From IMG/VR virus record IMGVR_UViG_3300025782_000009: a stretch of DNA of 64,000 nucleotides. One strand, 5' to 3'. The notes beneath the pieces were generated by a model, which saw only the letters and a list, made by a program, of their open reading frames with translations, was not told the DNA's origin and did no database searches. Below, piece by piece: positions 1 through 13,964 of this stretch (positions are counted from its first letter, which is position 1; each line of letters begins with the position of its first letter). The DNA is from a virus. Its lineage: Duplodnaviria > Heunggongvirae > Uroviricota > Caudoviricetes. Position numbers and translations under genes: made by a program.

Positions 1-369
1 CCTGACTTTTCGTCCAAATCCAACCGCTAAATCCGCCGTATTTGACGTTTGTATGATCTTTTTACCCGGATATCTACCCAAAAACCAGCTCGGCAACAAA
101 TAACTCGCAAATTCCGACTTCGTATGACGCGGAGCCATATTAATAATCAGCCGTTTTATCTTCCCCGCAGCTATCTCTTCAAATTTTTTAGCAACCAACG
201 CATGATGCCTCCCAGGAATAAACCCCGGCCACATCATCTTTACATAATTCAAAAACTTTTCCTGAGCCTTCTCCCTCTCCATCGCCTCCTTATAAACTTG
301 GAAGTCGTAAAACAACTTCTCCTGCTCGTTTATAGGCAGTTTCGAGATCAACTCAGCTATATCACTCAC
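1..369 (-). CDS. terL: Terminase large subunit, N-terminal part; the CDS continues beyond the window start
   Basis: Hand translation of the reverse strand gives VSDIAELISKLPINEQEKLFYDFQVYKEAMEREKAQEKFLNYVKMMWPGFIPGRHHALVAKKFEEIAAGKIKRLIINMAPRHTKSEFASYLLPSWFLGRYPGKKIIQTSNTADLAVGFGRKVR. The FIPGRHH and INMAPRHTKS (Walker A-like) motifs are typical of the TerL ATPase domain. The GTG start at 369 overlaps the stop of the upstream gene (GTGA). Confidence 0.7.
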   Translation of the reverse strand, partial: MSDIAELISKLPINEQEKLFYDFQVYKEAMEREKAQEKFLNYVKMMWPGFIPGRHHALVAKKFEEIAAGKIKRLIINMAPRHTKSEFASYLLPSWFLGRYPGKKIIQTSNTADLAVGFGRKVR

Positions 370-710
370 TCAACGTTCCTAAAATTTATATAAACCGGGC
401 GAATACTCCTCTTACCCTTCACCTTCTTTAAAACGCCAAGCTCAATCAACCGATCAACCATATGGCTCGTACTCCCAATACTCTTAACCCCCCTCTGATT
501 ACATATATCTCTTATAGACGGGCTACATCCAAACCTCTTCCACCACTCATCCACCACTATAAATACTTCCCTTTGCGCCGGTGTCATATCTTCCTCCAAA
601 CATTTTTCAAAAGTCGTCCGCTTTCTAACCGCCATTTTGCGATTTATTAATAACTTCGTTTCCAAATCACTTCGTTTTATCTTCATATGTAATACTTTTG
701 GGGGGGACAA
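366..710 (-). CDS. LexA-N-terminal-like winged-helix DNA-binding protein with no peptidase domain. The true start is probably the internal ATG at 587 (72 aa), which follows a GGAGGA Shine-Dalgarno; the track start at 710 is a TTG
   Basis: TPAQREVFIVVDEWWKRFGCSPSIRDICNQRGVKSIGSTSHMVDRLIELGVLKKVKGKRSIRPVYI aligns in pattern with the LexA N-terminal DNA-binding domain (LTxRQxEVxxxI...PSxREIxxxxGxxSxxxxxxHLxxLxxKGxI). It sits between terS and terL. Confidence 0.5.
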   Translation of the reverse strand: MSPPKVLHMKIKRSDLETKLLINRKMAVRKRTTFEKCLEEDMTPAQREVFIVVDEWWKRFGCSPSIRDICNQRGVKSIGSTSHMVDRLIELGVLKKVKGKRSIRPVYINFRNVE

Positions 711-759
711 TTATAACCGTTATAATTGTCCCTAAAAAAGTTCTAATATATACCCCCCC
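700..759. promoter_or_regulatory. G7 run, 29-bp perfect palindrome (GGGACAATTATAAC-C-GTTATAATTGTCCC), C7 run. Candidate operator or packaging-initiation element between terS and the winged-helix gene
   Basis: Read directly from the sequence. The 14-bp arms are perfect reverse complements, and the flanking GGGGGGG (700-706) and CCCCCCC (753-759) runs can extend the stem. Confidence 0.4.
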
Positions 760-765
760 ATGTAA

Positions 766-1470
766 TCAAAAAGGTTTCGATAAGGGGGTGTTTTCTGTGG
801 ATTGATCGCTTTCTGGGGGTAAACTTTTTGATGGGGGTAGGGTGTCTGGAATAGTATGTAGCTCACCAAGGGACTCCTGAACGCCTAAAGGGGTGTGTGG
901 GGTGCTCGATGCTGCTCCGGATAATTCGTCAAGGAGTAGGTCAACTTCTTTCACGTCAACGTCAATAGCTTGGCTCTTCATCATAGTCTTAAGCTCATCC
1001 ATTAGCTTAGATCTAGCGTCGGCGCTATTAGTAATGTGCGTTACTTCCTTACGTTCGGTAAACGCTGAGACTTCGGTTACTGTTCCGAGTACTTTGCTTG
1101 CGTTGATCTTTGCACTGTGTGAGGCATCAGGGTCAATGATGACCTGAACCAGTGATTGAATAACAAGCGCCCTTAATTGTGCAGGAGTACGATGTTTTTC
1201 CGCCTCTATTGCTAGCTTATAGGCTTCTAGTTCAGCTTGAATTCTGTTATCAGCTTTGAGCCTACTAGCATTGTCTCCTATTGTTTTGGGTGTTCCGTTA
1301 GTATCGTATGCCTGGCGGTAGGCATCTGCTCCCGTCATACCGAGAGCCAAACCCTTTGCAAATTCTTTCTGTTTTGTGGTTAGTTCACCGGGAACGTGAA
1401 GTATTTGATCTATTGGTATCTGGGTTAGACCTTCCTTTACCTGCTTTCTAGTTAGTTTCTTAATAGTCAT
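766..1470 (-). CDS. terS: Terminase small subunit
   Basis: LTTKQKEFAKGLALGMTGADAYRQAYDTNGTPKTIGDNASRLKADNRIQAELEAYK matches the Terminase_2 / P27-family TerS helix-turn-helix signature. It lies immediately upstream of terL in the same orientation. Confidence 0.75.
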   Translation of the reverse strand: MTIKKLTRKQVKEGLTQIPIDQILHVPGELTTKQKEFAKGLALGMTGADAYRQAYDTNGTPKTIGDNASRLKADNRIQAELEAYKLAIEAEKHRTPAQLRALVIQSLVQVIIDPDASHSAKINASKVLGTVTEVSAFTERKEVTHITNSADARSKLMDELKTMMKSQAIDVDVKEVDLLLDELSGAASSTPHTPLGVQESLGELHTIPDTLPPSKSLPPESDQSTENTPLSKPF

Positions 1471-1705: not shown

Positions 1706-1918
1706 ATGTTATTAAAAGCACGTTTCACAATAAATGTAGAAAAACTCAACGCTATCGTTGACCAGTACAACCAAACAAACGGCGTAGTTAAGTTTCTAAC
1801 TCAACCAGTATTTACTAGCAATAGCGAAGTAGTAGGCGAACAAAATGAGATTATGTTCTTTATCGGGTTTGTTGCAGGGCTCGGAGTACACGACCTTGAG
1901 CATGTAGCAAAGGCTTAA
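1706..1918 (+). CDS. Hypothetical early protein (70 aa)
   Basis: ORF with the upstream motif aaagggattcaaATG. It is the first gene of the plus-strand early operon. Confidence 0.5.
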   Translation: MLLKARFTINVEKLNAIVDQYNQTNGVVKFLTQPVFTSNSEVVGEQNEIMFFIGFVAGLGVHDLEHVAKA

Positions 1919-1919
1919 A

Positions 1920-1969
1920 GGTTAACTGACGAGACTTGAATAGTCGAAACCGCTCCGGCGGTCTTAACC
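1920..1969 (+). ncRNA. Hammerhead self-cleaving ribozyme, type I (copy 1)
   Basis: GGUUAA (stem I 5' strand), CUGACGA core, G, stem II GACU-ugaau-AGUC, GAA, A15.1, stem III CCGC-uccg-GCGG, U16.1, C17, then UUAACC (stem I 3' strand). All invariant core positions are present. The predicted cleavage site is after the GUC triplet, between 1963 and 1964. Confidence 0.7.
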
Positions 1970-2314: not shown

Positions 2315-2503
2315 ATGATAACACTATCAACCGAAACCCCTCAAAGCTACTTCACACCTAAACAAGCTCAATTTATTTGCTATCAAAACAATGCGGATGA
2401 GTTAGATGGTTGGACATACAAAGTAGAAGATGTAAACAACTCTAAAGGGTTATTAGTAATCCGTGTTTATGACGAAACCGGACACCCTTTGGGATATTTC
2501 TAA
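2315..2503 (+). CDS. Hypothetical early protein (62 aa)
   Basis: ORF with the coupling motif taaggaattacaaaATG. Confidence 0.5.
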   Translation: MITLSTETPQSYFTPKQAQFICYQNNADELDGWTYKVEDVNNSKGLLVIRVYDETGHPLGYF

Positions 2504-2555
2504 GGTCTACTGACGAGGCTTAATTAGCCGAAACCGCTCCCGGGCGGTATAGATC
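2504..2555 (+). ncRNA. Hammerhead self-cleaving ribozyme, type I (copy 2)
   Basis: GGUCUA, CUGACGA core, G, stem II GGCU-uaauu-AGCC, GAA, A, stem III CCGCUCCCGGGCGG, U, A17, then UAGAUC. Compensatory changes relative to copy 1 preserve stems I and II. The predicted cleavage site is after GUA, between 2549 and 2550. Confidence 0.65.
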
Positions 2556-5602: not shown

Positions 5603-6430
5603 TTGGGTCAGGCTTAGACCTGATTTAAGCAGTCCCTGGCGCTTGTGCGCGTCATTAAAATCTTCTCCTACTACGGGGCTAATCCAGTACGGAGCACCGA
5701 TTTCCTTAGCTATTCTCTCCCCCGTACCGCTCGCGTCATTGTCAGCAATCACCACGATTGGGTCAGGCTTCAAAGATTCTGCAATCTTTTTTACATTGTG
5801 CGCGGAAAAACACACATGGATTGTGTACTTCCTCTTCATGTGCTTGAGCACCTTACGAACCGATAACCCGGTCGCATAACCCTCACACAAAATATGTGGG
5901 CCTTGATTGTCAATTACAAACTCTGCCAGGCTAGTGCGTTGACCGTACAAGAATTTCTTATCTCCTGATTCGTCAATCAACTGACAACCGACAATCAACC
6001 CAGCCACGCGCATTGGCACAACCAATAGCTTTTCCGAGTCACAAGCATAGATCAACCCCTCCTCATCCTCAAACCCTTTAGCCTTTAAGTATGGATGAGT
6101 ACCGAGCTGGCACTTGGATATGATTGAGTCAACCTTAGCCTTTGCCTCCTGGTTTAATCTAATTCGATCCTGATCTACCTTGTGCAACTGAGCTCTGAGT
6201 TTAGCTGGGTCAGTCTTGATGCTTGAGTCAGAGTTCCAAATTGATACTTCTGTATCTGTCGCATGATTCTGGACAAATGCCATATCACCCATAAACTTAA
6301 CCGCACCATTACGCTTGTTTGGATGATCCTCTGTTGGGTATCTTTTCCATACGCCTATTGGTGGCATCTGATTCACGAGTATCCCGTGCGCCTTACAAAA
6401 ACTAAGCAGATCCATTGATTCTCTCTCCAA
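5585..6430 (-). CDS. DNA primase, TOPRIM domain (DnaG-like or phage/plasmid type)
   Basis: The TOPRIM signature is present: ILCEGYATGLSV (conserved Glu) and VIADNDASGTG (DxD). It is the last gene of the leftward operon, following the helicase and methyltransferase. Confidence 0.6.
   Translation of the reverse strand: MERESMDLLSFCKAHGILVNQMPPIGVWKRYPTEDHPNKRNGAVKFMGDMAFVQNHATDTEVSIWNSDSSIKTDPAKLRAQLHKVDQDRIRLNQEAKAKVDSIISKCQLGTHPYLKAKGFEDEEGLIYACDSEKLLVVPMRVAGLIVGCQLIDESGDKKFLYGQRTSLAEFVIDNQGPHILCEGYATGLSVRKVLKHMKRKYTIHVCFSAHNVKKIAESLKPDPIVVIADNDASGTGERIAKEIGAPYWISPVVGEDFNDAHKRQGLLKSGLSLTQLLNMS
5609..5625. terminator. Candidate bidirectional terminator hairpin between the convergent operons
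   Basis: TCAGG-cttaga-CCTGA stem-loop followed by TTTAAG, located between the 3' ends of the plus-strand gene ending at 5602 and the minus-strand gene ending at 5585. Confidence 0.3.
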
Positions 6431-7868
6431 TCCATCTCATTACTGGAACAGCCATTGAATTACCAAGTGCTTTATATCTTGGACCATCGGGCGTGTCTTT
6501 CCCTTTTGGCTTGATGTCGGTGTAATTATCAGGGAATCCTTGCAGTCTCTCGCATTCAACTGGCGTTAATCTTCTAACTGCCATAGACGCCTGATAAACC
6601 GCATTAACTTGCTGAGTAACTTCTGAGGATTGCGGTGACCTTGAAGGGTCATTTGTAGTTAGCGTTGGAGCAATAACAGTTCCAATTGATTCATTTACTC
6701 CGCCTTGTGGGCTTTTAATAGTTTGATTGACATCCGATAACGAATGGTTGTAGGTGTCAAAAGCAGCAACTCCATGACTATGTGCTTTTGTTAGAGTTGG
6801 ACATGGATCACCTGGATTTCCTATTCCAAAACCTCTGCGATTATCTTCTTTATCTCTACCTAACAAATTCATGGTATTTAAAGGTATTGGTTGTGCAACT
6901 CCATGCACACCCGTAGCATTAAGGGTATACATCGGACCACCCTCTGTAAATCCATCCCCATTACCGCCATTCTGCGGTTGCCTACCAATAGTATTCTCTG
7001 CCAATGCTATCGCCTGAACGAATGGAGTATTACCTCCGCCAGTACCCCAACTAGACGTTACAGTTTGGCATACATCACCCATTAGCTTGACCCTGGAGTC
7101 ACTTGGGTGGTTCTCATACACTACGCACTCTTCATGGTTGTTGCGACTCGCTCCAAAACGTGCCGTAATAGTTCCTGCAACTTGTGGATCACGAGGCTCT
7201 ACTATGCACTTTCCTTCAGATACATATTGATTACCTACTCCTTTGAAGTCTCTAGCGCACAACGCTCCAACGCTATCTGTAGAGCTTCTGGCAATTTCTT
7301 TCCTCTGCTCTCTGCTCGGCGGAGGATTCCCGCGCAAGCTTTCTGGCTCAAAAAGAACCTTTGCGGCAGACTCCCAGTCTCCAAGACATCCGACAACAAA
7401 CACACGACGGCGTCGTTGGGCCACTCCGAAGTACTGAGCGTCAAGGACTCGATAGCTCCACCCATACCCGAGTTCTGCCACCGCCCCGAGGAAGGAACCA
7501 AAATCCCGTCCTCCATTTGAACTGAGGACACCCGGCACGTTTTCCCATACGAACCACTTGGGTCTAAACTTATCAAGAATTCCGCAATAGACGAGCATAA
7601 GGTTTCCCCTTGGATCTTCAAGTCCTTTTCTGAGCCCGGCAACGGAAAAAGATTGGCAAGGTGTTCCACCGACCAGAAGGTTAACTGTTCCAAGATCCCA
7701 CTCCTTATATTTAGTCATATCCCCAAGATTAGGGACGTTTGGGTAATGATGTTTTAATACTTCGCTTGGGAACTTTTCAATCTCACTGAAACCGACTGCC
7801 TCCCAGCCCATGTGATGCCATGCTACTGTGGCGGCCTCAATACCCGCGCATACGCTTAGATATCTCAT
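6402..7868 (-). CDS. DNA (cytosine-5)-methyltransferase, orphan, with a large variable (TRD) insertion
   Basis: C5-MTase motifs are present in order: motif I VCAGIEAA, motif IV GGTPCQSFSVAG, motif VI ENVPG, motif VIII QRRRRVFVVG, then QGFPDNY and motif X ALGNSMAVPV after an insert of about 230 aa. No restriction endonuclease lies adjacent. Confidence 0.9.
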   Translation of the reverse strand: MRYLSVCAGIEAATVAWHHMGWEAVGFSEIEKFPSEVLKHHYPNVPNLGDMTKYKEWDLGTVNLLVGGTPCQSFSVAGLRKGLEDPRGNLMLVYCGILDKFRPKWFVWENVPGVLSSNGGRDFGSFLGAVAELGYGWSYRVLDAQYFGVAQRRRRVFVVGCLGDWESAAKVLFEPESLRGNPPPSREQRKEIARSSTDSVGALCARDFKGVGNQYVSEGKCIVEPRDPQVAGTITARFGASRNNHEECVVYENHPSDSRVKLMGDVCQTVTSSWGTGGGNTPFVQAIALAENTIGRQPQNGGNGDGFTEGGPMYTLNATGVHGVAQPIPLNTMNLLGRDKEDNRRGFGIGNPGDPCPTLTKAHSHGVAAFDTYNHSLSDVNQTIKSPQGGVNESIGTVIAPTLTTNDPSRSPQSSEVTQQVNAVYQASMAVRRLTPVECERLQGFPDNYTDIKPKGKDTPDGPRYKALGNSMAVPVMRWIGERINGSA

Positions 7869-9722: not shown

Positions 9723-9912
9723 TGTTGTTTTCCTTCTTTATTTCCTTCCACTCCCCGCCATTAACTGGCTGCCAACCATGCGTCTCGGTTAACACTTCGT
9801 TTTGATGCCACTGCTCAAGCACGGTAATGGTTTTGCCATCATTTGAATCATACTGATAAACTTGTTTATCTATCCATCTGAGTTGTGTTGTTGGTGTTCG
9901 TCTTGTGTTCAT
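9715..9912 (-). CDS. Small protein (65 aa), paralogue of the 12952..13152 product; the pair flanks the cassette array
   Basis: MNTRRTPTTQLRWIDKQVYQYDSNDGKTITVLEQWHQNEVLTETHGWQPVNGGEWKEIKKE versus MNKRLIPTTQLRWVDKKYYYYDSYDSQNQTIAVLEQWHQNEVLTENQGWQTVEGGEWKEIKKE. Confidence 0.5.
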   Translation of the reverse strand: MNTRRTPTTQLRWIDKQVYQYDSNDGKTITVLEQWHQNEVLTETHGWQPVNGGEWKEIKKENNSV

Positions 9913-10083
9913 TCGTTTTCCTTAAAGAAATCTTCTAAAACTTTTGCCGCCTTTTCGTCCATTCTGTCTTGCCAGTATTTTTTAGCAATGCTAGCTTCCT
10001 CTTCGGTCACTGGAATCCATTTGCCGTCCGCATCCTGCTTATTCCACCAAGGTTTGCCATCTTTATGCCCCAGAAACCACATG
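9910..10083 (-). CDS. Hypothetical small protein (57 aa), below the track cutoff
   Basis: Hand-translated as MWFLGHKDGKPWWNKQDADGKWIPVTEEEASIAKKYWQDRMDEKAAKVLEDFFKENE. The ATG sits inside the conserved junction aaggataagaatcATGtgg. ATGA coupling to the next gene. Confidence 0.4.
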
Positions 10084-10347
10084 ATTCTTATCCTTTAATT
10101 TAGCTTCTATACGCCTTGCATCAAGCAATAGCTGATCGTGGTTATAGTCAGGATCTCCTCTGTATGTACCAAAAATTCCAAAGATATCCTCATCTGTCAA
10201 CCCTACCCATTCTCTCCTCAATAAATTCTGAACATCGTTGCACATAACTTTTACTGAGTTGTAACCTTCGGCATCGCCACGGTCAGCGAGTTCATAGGCT
10301 TCTTGCATTATTCTGATTCTTATTGGTTCAAAATCTTTGTTATTCAT
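10063..10347 (-). CDS. Cassette-array protein (94 aa), mosaic
   Basis: Residues 1-55 are near-identical to the 12000..12290 product. The C-terminal module EWVGLTDEDIFGIFGTYRGDPDYNHDQLLLDARRIEAKLKDKNH equals that of the 12287..12601 product. The DNA blocks 10198-10347 and 12141-12290 are near-identical. Confidence 0.55.
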   Translation of the reverse strand: MNNKDFEPIRIRIMQEAYELADRGDAEGYNSVKVMCNDVQNLLRREWVGLTDEDIFGIFGTYRGDPDYNHDQLLLDARRIEAKLKDKNHVVSGA

Positions 10348-11051
10348 GTGTTGCGTTCCTTCAATTTAGCGTCTATTGCCTTAGCAAATCCAATCATGTC
10401 TGGAATACTACAATCTTCACCCACCCAAGATTCACTTAACCCCAAAACACCTTTGATGTCGTACTCAGTTAACTCTACCCATTCTGATTTAGCTTGATGG
10501 TATCCCTTGCTAAATCCTTCTCCATCAAAGTTTTTAATGTGTGTCTGCAAGTCAACGATGCGGGCTGTTTGGCGTTCTAGCATTGCGTGATTACCATCAA
10601 TTTCTTTATGCAAAGCATCGCACTCAGTTAATAAAAACTCAATGGCTTCTGCGGCATGTTCTGCTGTATTTGCTCGGGTCTTGTCCCTGAGTTGCTTAAC
10701 GTATTCTTGGCAAGAATCAATGCTCCAATGGCGTTTGTAGATGTCTTGTTCAGGTATTTCCTGCTCAATAATTTGTCCGTCTACAAACCACACTTTTTTC
10801 ATTTCTGTTGTCATTTCTCTGTCTCCTTTTGTGGCAAAGTTTTTTTTGCCGTACTGACAGCCTTTATTCTTGGTGTAACCGCAGTCACCACCGCATGATG
10901 GACATTGTTTCCATCTAGTCGGTTCATGTTCATTGCCAAAATCAACGTACCACGCCACAGACTTTTCCAGCGCATCTGCCGCTTCAAGTAACAGCAAGTG
11001 GTCAGGGCTTGTACCATCACCCAGCCGTAAGCGTTCAATTAAATCATTCAT
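10344..11051 (-). CDS. Cassette-array protein (235 aa) with a Cys-rich putative zinc-binding N-terminal domain
   Basis: The N-terminal 80 aa (MNDLIERLRLGDG...CPSCGGDCGYTKNKGCQYGKK) are identical to residues 10-90 of the 11382..11786 product. The C-terminus is SEWVELTEYD...AIDAKLKERNT. Confidence 0.55.
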   Translation of the reverse strand: MNDLIERLRLGDGTSPDHLLLLEAADALEKSVAWYVDFGNEHEPTRWKQCPSCGGDCGYTKNKGCQYGKKNFATKGDREMTTEMKKVWFVDGQIIEQEIPEQDIYKRHWSIDSCQEYVKQLRDKTRANTAEHAAEAIEFLLTECDALHKEIDGNHAMLERQTARIVDLQTHIKNFDGEGFSKGYHQAKSEWVELTEYDIKGVLGLSESWVGEDCSIPDMIGFAKAIDAKLKERNT

Positions 11052-11394
11052 GATTTTTTTCCTTTAATTTATCTTCAACCATCCGCATTGCATCTATGTA
11101 GTCTTGCACCGAAATCATGGGCGTTTTGATCTTCATTTGCAATTGAAAATATTCCTCATCCGTCAGACCTGCCCATTCTTTAGTTTGTAATGGAATCTTT
11201 GGTTTAATGTAATAATATTTCCATCCCCTAGGAATCTCTACGCCTTGACCAACACCATCCACTACTTCGTATTCTTTCTCTTGCTTTAGTGCTTCTCTCA
11301 GGTTCTGCCACTCAATAGTGCAAGGTCTGCACTTATCTGCATGGGGAGCAAAGGCATCTACCATTCTTTGTGCCGCTTCTTTTAATTTATGCAT
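11044..11394 (-). CDS. Cassette-array protein (116 aa)
   Basis: C-terminal module KEWAGLTDEEYFQLQ...VEDKLKEKNHE. Preceded by the conserved AAGGAGAAGAACACATG junction. Confidence 0.55.
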   Translation of the reverse strand: MHKLKEAAQRMVDAFAPHADKCRPCTIEWQNLREALKQEKEYEVVDGVGQGVEIPRGWKYYYIKPKIPLQTKEWAGLTDEEYFQLQMKIKTPMISVQDYIDAMRMVEDKLKEKNHE

Positions 11395-11786
11395 GTGTTC
11401 TTCTCCTTAAATTTAGCTTCTATTGCTTTTGCTAATTTAGTTGGAAAACCTGCGTTTTTTATTACCAAATCAACAATTTCCTCATCTGTTAACCCTACCC
11501 ATTCTTTAGGTTCACCCTGCTCTTGCGATGTCAACATATCAGGCAAAGTTTTTTTGCCGTACTGACAGCCTTTATTCTTGGTGTAACCGCAGTCACCACC
11601 GCATGATGGACATTGTTTCCATCTAGTCGGTTCATGTTCATTGCCAAAATCAACGTACCACGCCACAGACTTTTCCAGCGCATCTGCCGCTTCAAGTAAC
11701 AGCAAGTGGTCAGGGCTTGTACCATCACCCAGCCGTAAGCGTTCAATTAAATCATTCATGTGTTTTCTCCCTGAGTTTGATTTCAA
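11382..11786 (-). CDS. Cassette-array protein; the probable start is the internal ATG at 11759 (MNDLIERL...)
   Basis: Shares its N-terminus with the 10344..11051 product. The C-terminus is KEWVGLTDEEIVDLVIKNAGFPTKLAKAIEAKFKEKNT. The DNA repeat 11530-11786 is approximately equal to 10810-11051. Confidence 0.55.
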   Translation of the reverse strand: MKSNSGRKHMNDLIERLRLGDGTSPDHLLLLEAADALEKSVAWYVDFGNEHEPTRWKQCPSCGGDCGYTKNKGCQYGKKTLPDMLTSQEQGEPKEWVGLTDEEIVDLVIKNAGFPTKLAKAIEAKFKEKNTCIN

Positions 11787-12003
11787 TGGCTTCTAGCGTT
11801 GATGCGGTAATGCGATAAAACCCAATGGGCGTATCTGGATACCACTGCAACACCCAGACGCTATCTTCCGCTACAGCCTTGTGCCATTCTTCTGGTGAAA
11901 CAAAACAGTCGGCTTCATAAAATTCTTCAACAGTTTCGTAAACATCACGGTGTTCATTGTGACTCAGATGTAAACCACATTTGTGTTCTGGTAACCAGTT
12001 CAT
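11752..12003 (-). CDS. Cassette-array protein (83 aa)
   Basis: Ends ...TLEAIEIKLREKTHE. ATGA coupling. Confidence 0.5.
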   Translation of the reverse strand: MNWLPEHKCGLHLSHNEHRDVYETVEEFYEADCFVSPEEWHKAVAEDSVWVLQWYPDTPIGFYRITASTLEAIEIKLREKTHE

Positions 12004-12290
12004 GTGTTCTTCTCCTTAAATTTAGCTTCTATTGCTCTGCCTACTTCAAATATATTCACACTTCCTTTGACTCCACCTTTAGGGTCAACAACTTTAAGAT
12101 GACAACTCTCGTCAAAACAATCTTCTATTTGCTCATTAGTCAACCCTACCCATTCTCTCCTCAATAAATTCTGAACATCGTTGCACATAACTTTTACTGA
12201 GTTGTAACCTTCGGAATCGCCACGGTCAGCGAGTTCATAGGCTTCTTGCATTATTCTGATTCTTATTGGTTCAAAATCTTTGTTATTCAT
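12000..12290 (-). CDS. Cassette-array protein (96 aa)
   Basis: The N-terminal 55 aa are identical to the 10063..10347 product. The C-terminus is REWVGLTNEQIEDC...GRAIEAKFKEKNT. Confidence 0.55.
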   Translation of the reverse strand: MNNKDFEPIRIRIMQEAYELADRGDSEGYNSVKVMCNDVQNLLRREWVGLTNEQIEDCFDESCHLKVVDPKGGVKGSVNIFEVGRAIEAKFKEKNT

Positions 12291-12601
12291 GTGTTAAGCC
12301 CCTTAATCTTAGATTCAATACGCCTTGCATCAAGTAATAGCTGGTCGTGGTTATAGTCAGGATCTCCTCTGTATGTACCGAAGATGCCAAAGATATCCTC
12401 GTCAGTCAACCCTACCCATTCTTTGTATTCAACCATTGGTACGCACTCGCTTTGATAGTTTGCATCCCACTGGTTTGCTACGCATACGCACCCGCGCTCA
12501 TGGCATCCGATATCCACCATGAGAATTTTGTCTGAGTCCCAGGGTGTCTGCATCTTTTTTATTTCATTCATGTGTTCTTCTCCAATTGTTTGTTGATCCA
12601 C
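12287..12601 (-). CDS. Cassette-array protein; the probable start is the internal ATG at 12571 (MNEIKKMQTPW...)
   Basis: The C-terminus KEWVGLTDEDIFGIFGTYRGDPDYNHDQLLLDARRIESKIKGLNT duplicates the C-terminus of the 10063..10347 product. The N-terminal part is Cys-rich (GCHERGCVCV). Confidence 0.55.
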   Translation of the reverse strand: MDQQTIGEEHMNEIKKMQTPWDSDKILMVDIGCHERGCVCVANQWDANYQSECVPMVEYKEWVGLTDEDIFGIFGTYRGDPDYNHDQLLLDARRIESKIKGLNT

Positions 12602-12822
12602 TCATCCAACTTTTCATGCAACCATTCAATATTACGCTCACCAACTGATTTGCCGTTGTTTGTTATTCTAGGGTCAGTCAAAATATCTTTAATAACATCC
12701 CCTGAAGTGAACGTGATAGTGGTTCCATCATGCATCGTGTTTACACTTAAGCCGACTCCTTTATGAGAAACGCCAAACCCCGCTGTTAAAACTTCATTCA
12801 TTTTCGCTCTCCATAACATCAA
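12568..12822 (-). CDS. Cassette-array protein (84 aa or shorter)
   Basis: Ends ...NIEWLHEKLDEWINKQLEKNT, followed by an overlapping start. Confidence 0.5.
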   Translation of the reverse strand: MMLWRAKMNEVLTAGFGVSHKGVGLSVNTMHDGTTITFTSGDVIKDILTDPRITNNGKSVGERNIEWLHEKLDEWINKQLEKNT

Positions 12823-13045
12823 TAATTAACTGTTGCTTTACTAATTCCAAACAACCGATTGCGGTTGCTGTGTAAAGCGCTTCATCGTACTTGTGGATTA
12901 GTTCTAGCATTTCTTCAACAAGACTATCCGCTAATTTGCCTTGACTAAAGTTCATGGATTTTGCTCCTTTTTTATTTCCTTCCACTCCCCGCCCTCCACT
13001 GTTTGCCAACCTTGGTTTTCGGTCAATACTTCGTTTTGATGCCAC
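12794..13045 (-). CDS. Hypothetical small protein; the probable start is the internal ATG at 12955 (53 aa)
   Basis: The ATG at 12955 overlaps the stop of the upstream 66-aa gene (ATGA). Confidence 0.4.
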   Translation of the reverse strand: MASKRSIDRKPRLANSGGRGVEGNKKGAKSMNFSQGKLADSLVEEMLELIHKYDEALYTATAIGCLELVKQQLIIDVMESENE

Positions 13046-13152
13046 TGCTCAAGCACGGCTATGGTTTGATTTTGGCTGTCGTAGGAATCGTAGTAATAAT
13101 ATTTTTTATCTACCCATCTGAGTTGTGTTGTTGGTATTAGTCTTTTATTCAT
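12952..13152 (-). CDS. Small protein (66 aa), paralogue of the 9715..9912 product
   Basis: Shares LRW.DK..Y.YDS....TI.VLEQWHQNEVLTE..GWQ.V.GGEWKEIKKE with the 9715..9912 product. Confidence 0.5.
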   Translation of the reverse strand: MNKRLIPTTQLRWVDKKYYYYDSYDSQNQTIAVLEQWHQNEVLTENQGWQTVEGGEWKEIKKEQNP

Positions 13153-13964
13153 ATGATCTCCGTTTCGAGCTTCTTAATCTTTTTCTCGAGCCATTTGATT
13201 TGCTTCTTTAATTCATCATTCTCATTCTGAAACTGATCCCGGCTGAGCTTTACCGCCTTCAGCTCCATCTCCATGTCTTTGATCTGCTGGCGTAGTTCAG
13301 TGATGTGCTCTTCTGTATGAGTTGGATCTGCCGATACTGTTACCGCCAACTGATCCAATAGCTTTTGATTCTCTTCAATCAATATTTCCAGGGCTTCATT
13401 GGCTGTATCTAGCTTAGATTCATTGACCACTGGATCGGGCGCAACACTAGGCTTGATTTTCTTTGTCTCCGTCTTGGGCTTTACCTTGCGCTCAATGACC
13501 TCTCCCTCTGAGTTCTTATACTTAATGCTCTCAGGTTGTTTGCCCTTGCGCTGCTTGGCTACAAAGGCTTCTGATACGTTACATTGCCTGGCTATTTCTG
13601 CCGTGCTCCAGTTTGACCACTCAAAGTTATCGAGCATCATCATTACTGCGTTACGCTTGTCCTCTATCGTCCTGGGCTTGCCGTGCTTGTCGTTAGCCCC
13701 TACCGCGTAGAGCACCGCATCTGATAGCGTTCCTGCCGTTACTTCTGCTTCAATGCCTGTGCGCTTAGCCTTCTGGGCTGCATGGAATCTGTGGAATCCA
13801 TCTGCCAGGTAGTAATGAACGCCATCGTGGAATATGCGTACCGGGGGAAACTCCGCTCCCGATAGCATCGCTTCGCAGTATTCATCTACTGTTGGCTGGT
13901 CAATCTCCTTTCTGCTCTGTGTGCCACAGTCAATTCTGATCTTCTTTATGGTTACTATTTGCAT
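13149..13964 (-). CDS. ParB-like nuclease-domain protein with a C-terminal coiled coil
   Basis: PVRIFHDGVHYYLADGFHRFHAAQKAKRTGIEAEV matches the ParB/Srx N-terminal domain signature. The C-terminal third is heptad-rich (ELKKQIKWLEKKIKKLE). Confidence 0.7.
   Translation of the reverse strand: MQIVTIKKIRIDCGTQSRKEIDQPTVDEYCEAMLSGAEFPPVRIFHDGVHYYLADGFHRFHAAQKAKRTGIEAEVTAGTLSDAVLYAVGANDKHGKPRTIEDKRNAVMMMLDNFEWSNWSTAEIARQCNVSEAFVAKQRKGKQPESIKYKNSEGEVIERKVKPKTETKKIKPSVAPDPVVNESKLDTANEALEILIEENQKLLDQLAVTVSADPTHTEEHITELRQQIKDMEMELKAVKLSRDQFQNENDELKKQIKWLEKKIKKLETEII

Follow-up and report, generated by a model that had tools for sequence, protein, structure and literature searches.

What does a long perfect palindrome do between the two terminase genes of a phage, and does it serve DNA packaging or the control of a neighboring gene? 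The question is raised by one end of the window, as we call the whole 64-kb stretch of viral DNA analysed, whose phage is a lytic-looking podovirus with a terL of the Terminase_6C type. An earlier note on this DNA had treated a run of seven G, a 29-bp palindrome and a run of seven C as one element, a candidate packaging (pac) site or late-gene operator, with the adjacent winged-helix protein (wHTH) as a plausible ligand. The features of the locus are the following.

1-369, minus strand: 5' part of terL, with a GTG start at 369; the N-terminus matches PHROG 4758/38 (E ~1e-22) and the gene runs off the window.
366-686, minus strand: wHTH gene, 106 aa from the ATG at 686, matching Pfam LexA_DNA_bind (E 1.1e-6).
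700-706, plus strand: G7 run (C7 on the gene strand), lineage-specific, extending the promoter-distal arm of the palindrome.
704-732, both strands: perfect palindrome (14+1+14), candidate binding site of the adjacent wHTH protein.
733-744, minus strand: AT-rich linker AGAACTTTTTTA between G-box and palindrome, matching a conserved GAACTTTTAG(G) motif.
745-759, minus strand: G-box core GGGGGGG-TATATATT, strand-specific, whose G-run is the C7 run of the earlier note.
784-797, minus strand: 5' half of the G-box module, CAGAAAACACCCCC, inside the last terS codons.
1470-766, minus strand: terS, 234 aa, matching PHROG 51 (E 4.6e-7) and retained ahead of the wHTH gene in related loci.

A LexA-like winged-helix gene does lie between terS and terL, as the earlier note had it, but the strands implied there were wrong, since terS, wHTH and terL are all minus-strand genes. 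The GTG start of terL (369) overlaps the wHTH stop (GTGA). The gap of about 180 bp that had been given between terS and the wHTH gene was too large: from the terS stop (766) there are 79 nt to the first in-frame wHTH ATG (686) and 130 nt to the conserved family Met (635).

Elsewhere in the window, a gene at 6402-7868 (minus) encodes a 488-aa DNA methyltransferase (PHROG 116, E 7e-94), and the region 9730-13160 (minus) contains a cluster of paralogous small genes and repeats; the latter include direct ones of 90-240 nt (77-96% identity) and six copies of a 45-nt motif. Rfam gave no match at the gathering score in the whole window, with only chance-level matches in 560-860. Two hammerhead-ribozyme-like motifs with the core CUGACGAG..CGAAAC..GUC were seen between small early genes, at 1893-1968 (+) and at about 2500-2555 (+). 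The former scored 26.3 bits against RAGATH-1-hammerhead (RF03152), below the gathering score of 56.3 and with an E-value of 0.044 in a 741-nt search, and 17.4 bits against Hammerhead_1; the latter was recognised by eye only.

The palindrome proved to be just as perfect as had been claimed. Its plus strand at 704-732 reads exactly GGGACAATTATAAC-C-GTTATAATTGTCCC, and the gene (minus) strand GGGACAATTATAAC-G-GTTATAATTGTCCC. The plus strand of 700-759 is GGGGGGGACAATTATAACCGTTATAATTGTCCCTAAAAAAGTTCTAATATATACCCCCCC, which can be parsed as GGGGGGG ACAATTATAAC C GTTATAATTGT CCC TAAAAAAGTTCTAATATATA CCCCCCC. No other perfect inverted repeat with arms of at least 10 and a loop of at most 10 exists in the 64 kb. 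Sixty 64-kb sequences simulated with a first-order Markov model never reached a perfect arm of 14, their longest ones being 8-12. Within the palindrome is the half-site core found throughout the family, TAAC..GTTA, here with a 1-nt center, and each arm also contains TATAAT; TATATAT is present in the G-box. Neither the half-site nor GGGGTATA has a further copy elsewhere in the 64-kb window, and the palindrome is thus neither a dispersed promoter motif nor the mark of a regulon within the window. Two related loci (L003 and L004) carry the same palindrome, and in a third that is 93% identical (L005) 12 of the 14 positions pair.

Several analyses indicated that the protein encoded next to the palindrome belongs to the LexA DNA-binding family. 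It scored 28.8 bits against LexA_DNA_bind (PF01726), above the curated cut-off of 23.7, and matched LexA in the PDB (3k2z) by phmmer with an E-value of 0.006; a further match was to PHROG 3502, a group of unknown function. An AlphaFold model of the protein (pLDDT 81) superimposed on LexA DNA-binding domains with an rmsd of 1.2-1.3 Å. Such domains made up the top nine Foldseek matches, among them the LexA-DNA complex 3jso (rmsd 1.3 Å over 68 residues), followed by HrcA, PefI, MarR and DtxR, and no terminase subunit was among the structural matches. The S24 peptidase/dimerisation domain with its self-cleavage site is absent, since the protein ends at residue 106 and matches the DNA-binding domain only, and for this reason RecA-driven self-cleavage is not expected. 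The recognition helix spans residues 70-83, where the clade of the window has S72, S74 and H75 in place of the N (at least 90%), K and E of the family. As modelled, the protein has the fold and the sequence of a transcription repressor.

Relatives of the wHTH protein were found to be numerous and confined to metagenomes. They are encoded on 273 IMG/VR contigs and form 396 clusters in the protein database, all metagenomic and of about 100 aa. The order terS-wHTH-terL was kept in all 80 loci fetched, wherever the flank was present, and also in more distant clades. No cultured phage matched the wHTH protein, terS or the DNA in near and distant DNA searches and in protein searches, and we found no description of the gene arrangement or of the G-box sequence in the literature. 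A search of genome bins for a host gave five matches in MAGs of five unrelated taxa; these are most likely mis-binned phage contigs and the assignment was rejected.

The terL gene could be followed further in the related locus L003 (4318-6699), which is identical to 1-369 of the window over the shared part. Its full-length product of 793 aa carries an intein (Intein_splicing PF14890, E 8e-19, residues ~220-520), and tblastn of this protein against intein-free relatives gave matches split in two pieces. The nearest cultured relatives of this terL, at 48-56% identity, are Pelagibacter phages HTVC027P and HTVC023P, DSL-LC04 and Planktothrix phage Pag-Yong1, all of which were without a wHTH gene upstream of terL and without a G-box. 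Phages with the same terL family and no wHTH gene occur among both cultured and uncultured phages, and the wHTH gene therefore looks accessory rather than a core part of the packaging machinery. As predicted from sequence, the arrangement is one of a repressor-type protein and a dyad site embedded in a terminase operon, with a highly conserved terL-linked element alongside. If so, the terminase operon in a large uncultured group of freshwater phages includes both a protein that binds DNA sequence-specifically and the site that it recognises.

Comparison of the related loci showed that a dyad next to the wHTH gene is the rule. With sites called at an inverted-repeat score of at least 7, a dyad was present within 130 nt upstream of the conserved wHTH Met in 97% of 59 distinct related loci, compared with 8% of 242 control intervals from the same loci and 5% of shuffles. 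These sites are kept across wHTH proteins that are only 40-60% identical. Alignment of 26 distinct sites on their centers gave the consensus nnATGGwAAC|GTTwCCATnn, with AACGTT as the usual center. Positions ±6 and ±7 were complementary in 26/26 sites and positions ±1 to ±10 in 21-26/26, and beyond ±10 symmetry fell sharply (8-12/26 sites). With TGG/CCA at ±5 to ±7 around an N8 spacer, the consensus has the arrangement of a LexA box, and one site (L022) is an exact CTGT-N8-ACAG. The site of the window has TTAT..ATAA at those positions and an odd center, and is not an SOS box of the E. coli type. The dyad overlaps the wHTH ATG in four loci (L063, L047, L068 and L051) and lies 10-45 nt upstream of it in others, and in three of these four (L063, L047 and L068) the GAACTTTTAG(G) motif continues into the wHTH Shine-Dalgarno sequence AGGAG. 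Where dyads fall inside the N-terminal coding region they are read in different frames, and coding is therefore not the reason for their conservation. A dyad that is just upstream of, or overlaps, the start of the gene and is conserved as a class among homologues is what would be expected of a self-regulated operator. Aligned in this way, the palindrome is the version of this dyad that belongs to the clade of the window.

The sequence of the dyad was found to vary with the recognition helix of the protein beside it. Helices of the form GNTK[E/D] accompanied TG[G/A] at -7..-5 in 13/13 distinct sites, compared with 2/12 for other helices, these being descriptive counts uncorrected for phylogeny. 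In the clade of the window the TAAC..GTTA core is retained and TTA replaces TGG. A clade of shorter proteins with the helix GRGNVxRK has (G/A/T)TAACA-NN-TGTTA sites. In the clade with the helix SNTSK (MSMSNTSKIIKRL), the stretch from the terS stop to the wHTH start is filled by arrays of 3-5 AGAAA-N10-TTTCT units, of which there were 109 in 8.8 kb of upstream intervals and 38 in 119 kb elsewhere. The 10-bp center of the units varies between phages and is often non-palindromic, and it does not differ from repeat to repeat in a given phage. Together, the dyads in relatives, their LexA-box geometry and the half-sites that track the helix support the earlier proposal that the adjacent protein is the ligand, and the palindrome is probably its binding site. 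If this is correct, the evolution of specificity could be studied in these phages, where matched variants of protein and site occur naturally as a series.

The G and C runs had been described as flanking the palindrome. Both runs exist, but the G7 run (700-706) shares its last three bases with the start of the palindrome, and the C7 run (753-759) sits 20 nt past it. They are the only runs of at least seven G or C in the window; although either alone would be unremarkable from base composition (~1-2.5 expected), it is not expected that both should fall within 60 nt of the unique palindrome. In L005, the relative with 93% identity, the position of the G7 run has the degenerate sequence CCCACC, and a G6 run is on the other side of the palindrome. 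The C7 run, by comparison, belongs to a separate and more widely conserved module that is linked to terL, and the single element of the earlier note has to be divided: compared with relatives, the region reads as two separate conserved modules, the palindrome and a C-run/G-run module.

This second module, the G-box module, is about 65 nt long and consists of a C-run, about 25 nt, a G-run, TATAT and a T-run, with the consensus ..AG(A/G)AA(A)CA-CCCCCC, ~20-27 nt, (ACCCCC or GGGGT)GGGGGG-TATAT(A/T)TTTT. On the gene strand of the window the order is CAGAAAACACCCCC (797..784), 24 nt including the terS stop, and GGGGGGG TATATATT (759..745), the core occurring once in the window. The module has a strong strand preference: in 692 kb of related loci, GGGG(G)TATA occurred 75 times on the gene strand and three times on the opposite one. 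An exact 16-mer, GGGGGGTATATWTTTT, matched more than 120 IMG/VR viral contigs (loci L167-L286) and was single-copy in all except one, which has two copies. Within 3 kb of the module, and on its strand, the terL family of the window followed in 95 of 101 evaluable contigs, and a related terS family is present in other G-box contigs. Three gene orders were seen: G-box, terS, terL and portal, at a divergent intergenic region (26 contigs); terS, G-box, wHTH and terL (>33 contigs); and the G-box followed directly by terL, with the terL start less than 130 nt from the G-run (three contigs). The last order was assigned by distance alone and is uncertain, as the one locus inspected (L268) has a short wHTH ORF in between. 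Some wHTH clades (L051, L054 and L057) have dyad sites and no G-box. The distance from G-box to dyad center is 34-53 nt in one clade, and in another the order of the two is reversed.

Nearly all predicted folds pair the C-run with the G-run, which begins 25-30 nt further downstream, and the terS stop then falls between the two. A U/A-rich tail follows, UAUAUAUU in the window, and a minority of copies have A-rich tails. With such a tail the hairpin resembles a terminator, although it fits the features of one only in part. The C:G pairs are invariant among the copies and show no covariation, and a covariation test of the pairing is thus uninformative. A terminator or attenuator, a late promoter and a packaging site are all possible roles for the module, and if there is a packaging site at this locus, the module is a better candidate for it than the palindrome stretch. 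This terL-tied module is, in our opinion, the best lead in these phages to a control point of the late operon or to the start of packaging. Individual copies have additional repeats nearby: TTGACTGTCAA in L268, with one copy in the hairpin loop and one after the hairpin; CAACTTGTTG in L204, on both sides of the G-box; and CGGTACAAA in L245, three times, beside a second, degenerate G-box.

How the palindrome itself works can be read in several ways, and not all of them need a protein. It could act as an RNA hairpin in the terS-wHTH-terL transcript, with or without a protein, and influence how the wHTH mRNA is translated or how stable it is, for example by covering the start region. The minus strand of 630-800 folds better than shuffles (z -3.3), the palindrome being predicted to form a 13-bp hairpin extended by CUUUUU:AAAAG. 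The variable positions of the family dyad stay complementary, and the left arm in several relatives carries the wHTH ATG, with AGGAG before it; in addition, the center measures 0, 1 or 3 nt in phages with the same wHTH protein, which a simple half-site model does not readily accommodate. The details of the sites, however, favor half-sites for a protein over a hairpin, given that the half-sites track the helix, that one site (L033) is a hybrid of two different half-site variants that is not self-complementary, that two others (L050 and L080) share the same asymmetric positions, that the palindrome of L005 has two uncompensated mismatches, and that dyad mismatches among the relatives show no G.U bias. 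The array units, with their non-palindromic 10-nt centers, would have arms of only 5 bp, the start codon of the window is outside the hairpin, and no Rfam family matches it, all of which make an RNA element improbable. What a pure half-site model does not predict is the symmetry at non-conserved positions, as ±4, ±9 and ±10 are symmetric in 21-22/26 sites with ~9 expected, and this holds even between L015 and L022, whose proteins are identical over the domain. This excess points to either an added hairpin constraint or correction of one arm by the other through template switching.

Self-templated correction of this kind might also keep a palindrome perfect that has no function of its own, or one with a cruciform or replication-type role in the DNA. 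Perfect symmetry at non-conserved positions would fit, as would the two mismatches that the nearest relative tolerates, but the excess of dyads in related loci over controls, with conserved half-sites beside such divergent proteins, makes this account very improbable. Less credible still, and in our judgment close to dismissible, is an intrinsic terminator after terS. The palindrome would form a stable hairpin past a stop codon, but what comes after this hairpin on the transcribed (minus) strand is CCCCAAAAG rather than a U-tract, the T6 run precedes the hairpin, and the other strand is no better. The palindrome was not called in a terminator scan, A-rich sequence follows the sites of the relatives, and the terminator-like element at this locus is the separate C-run/G-run hairpin.

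The reading that we prefer, tentatively and with confidence somewhat short of even, is that the palindrome is an autoregulatory operator that gates expression of wHTH and terL. A wHTH dimer would bind both arms as duplex DNA, with its gene 18 nt downstream on the minus strand. The site would lie between the end of terS, with the G-run/TATA module, and the wHTH start codon, and because of this position its occupancy would hinder RNA polymerase, whether initiating at the TATA-like box or arriving by read-through out of terS. The outcome would be negative autoregulation of wHTH and, through the overlap of start and stop codons, of terL. In this scheme we infer the binding of wHTH itself, the sign of the regulation and the position of the transcription start. 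No promoter of the sigma-70 type was called in 1-2000 on either strand, where shuffles led us to expect 4.1; this interval includes the divergent region 1471-1705, in which early and late promoters should lie, and the result suggests that the promoters of the host or phage are of a type outside the E. coli consensus. A sigma-54 promoter in the dyad consensus of the relatives and a Bacteroidetes -7/-33 promoter in the G-box were considered by eye, and both were rejected on spacing. Some observations run against an operator: no called promoter overlaps the site; the order of site and G-box flips between clades and their spacing varies over 34-53 nt, which is not the classic geometry of promoter and operator; the wHTH gene is kept between terS and terL, as a packaging factor would equally be; and there is no obvious benefit in repressing an operon that starts with terL.

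The strongest competitor to an operator is a packaging recognition site, in which the wHTH protein bound to the palindrome would mark phage DNA for the terminase, in the manner of gpNu1 at the R sites of lambda cosB. In lambda the order is cosN - I2 - cosB (R3, R2, R1) - Nu1 - A, and cosB is bound by the winged-helix domain of gpNu1 (PMC4856287); the G/C-rich box, the AT-rich tract with T6, the wHTH site or sites, the wHTH gene and terL mirror this order. The neighboring G/C-run module would then be the place of terL action, as a cosN-like or pac cleavage region. Both the palindrome and the G-box are single-copy in the 64 kb and lie in or next to the terminase genes, as a pac or cos site would, and the G-box module stays upstream of its terL family whichever small gene intervenes. 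Sites are arrayed three to five at a time in one clade, the terS-wHTH-terL synteny is conserved with the wHTH stop overlapping the terL start, and the overall pattern is one of a conserved core with variable, protein-matched sites. Nevertheless, a complete terS with its own HTH is already present, and the wHTH fold is of the LexA type, not the Nu1 or terS type, and lacks an additional domain for contact with terL. Site and G-box vary in their spacing and order, unlike the fixed distance in lambda, the clades noted above have sites and no G-box, and relatives with the same terL family do without the wHTH gene.

The ends of contigs do not favor packaging at this locus either. More than 10 near-complete contigs (57-67 kb) have the locus internally, at varied positions, and near the G-box contigs end at differing bases; among the wHTH loci, IMG/VR contig ends showed no pile-up at a fixed base. 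Contigs with the G-box did start more often just upstream of the G-run (14 vs 2), at points scattered over 9-135 nt. We rejected this asymmetry as a sign of genome termini, as de Bruijn assemblers yield the same at a repeat shared by co-occurring genomes.

Based on these considerations we regard a packaging site as possible but clearly the less likely of the two, and slightly less likely again is the specific scenario that, in an abundant but uncultured freshwater relative of the HTVC023P-type podoviruses, a LexA-type protein between terS and terL took over DNA recognition for packaging. Were that scenario correct, the packaging origin would be modular, with a clade-specific dyad as its "cosB" and a conserved C-run/G-run/TATA core as its "cosN/pac", and the terminase would in effect have three components. 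Between the alternatives posed by the earlier note we lean towards the operator, on the grounds that in most clades the site lies close against the start of wHTH, that the protein has a repressor fold and that phages with the same terL manage without it.

Among known systems, the cos region of lambda shares with the wHTH phages a conserved core box and variable sites matched to a protein. The wHTH protein, on the other hand, is LexA-type, of only ~100 aa, and accompanied by a separate full terS; it is not a terminase small subunit, which would combine a Nu1-type winged helix with a terL-binding domain. Spacing and order of box and site are unfixed in the wHTH phages, and terL is of the Terminase_6C and not the lambda gpA type.

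A second lambda element, PR'-qut-tR', provides a short terminated leader ahead of the late genes. The likeness is to the G-box module only, which may be compared with it as a single-copy conserved element before late or packaging genes, with a predicted hairpin and U-rich tail near a TATA-like box; the C:G pairs of the module differ in being without covariation. For the locus as a whole, a possible analogy is with RinA, LtrC, ArpU and Alt, which activate late genes in Gram-positive siphoviruses and have their genes adjacent to terS. There, too, the gene of a small DNA-binding protein neighbors the terminase genes and its site heads the packaging/morphogenesis operon, but the activator genes precede terS and the sites are upstream of the late promoter.

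A further likeness is to LexA and the SOS system. The wHTH DNA-binding domain has the same fold and belongs to the same family (PF01726; PDB 3jso, 1lea, 3k2z), its proposed target is a dyad, and in most relatives the conserved bases are at ±5 to ±7 with N8 between, as in the SOS box. The window site, ACAATTATAAC-G-GTTATAATTGT, is itself no SOS box, and the protein differs from LexA in being without the S24 peptidase/dimerisation domain and RecA-driven self-cleavage, and in having its gene embedded between terS and terL. In its domain content it resembles the phage and plasmid proteins that are made of a LexA-type DNA-binding domain alone.
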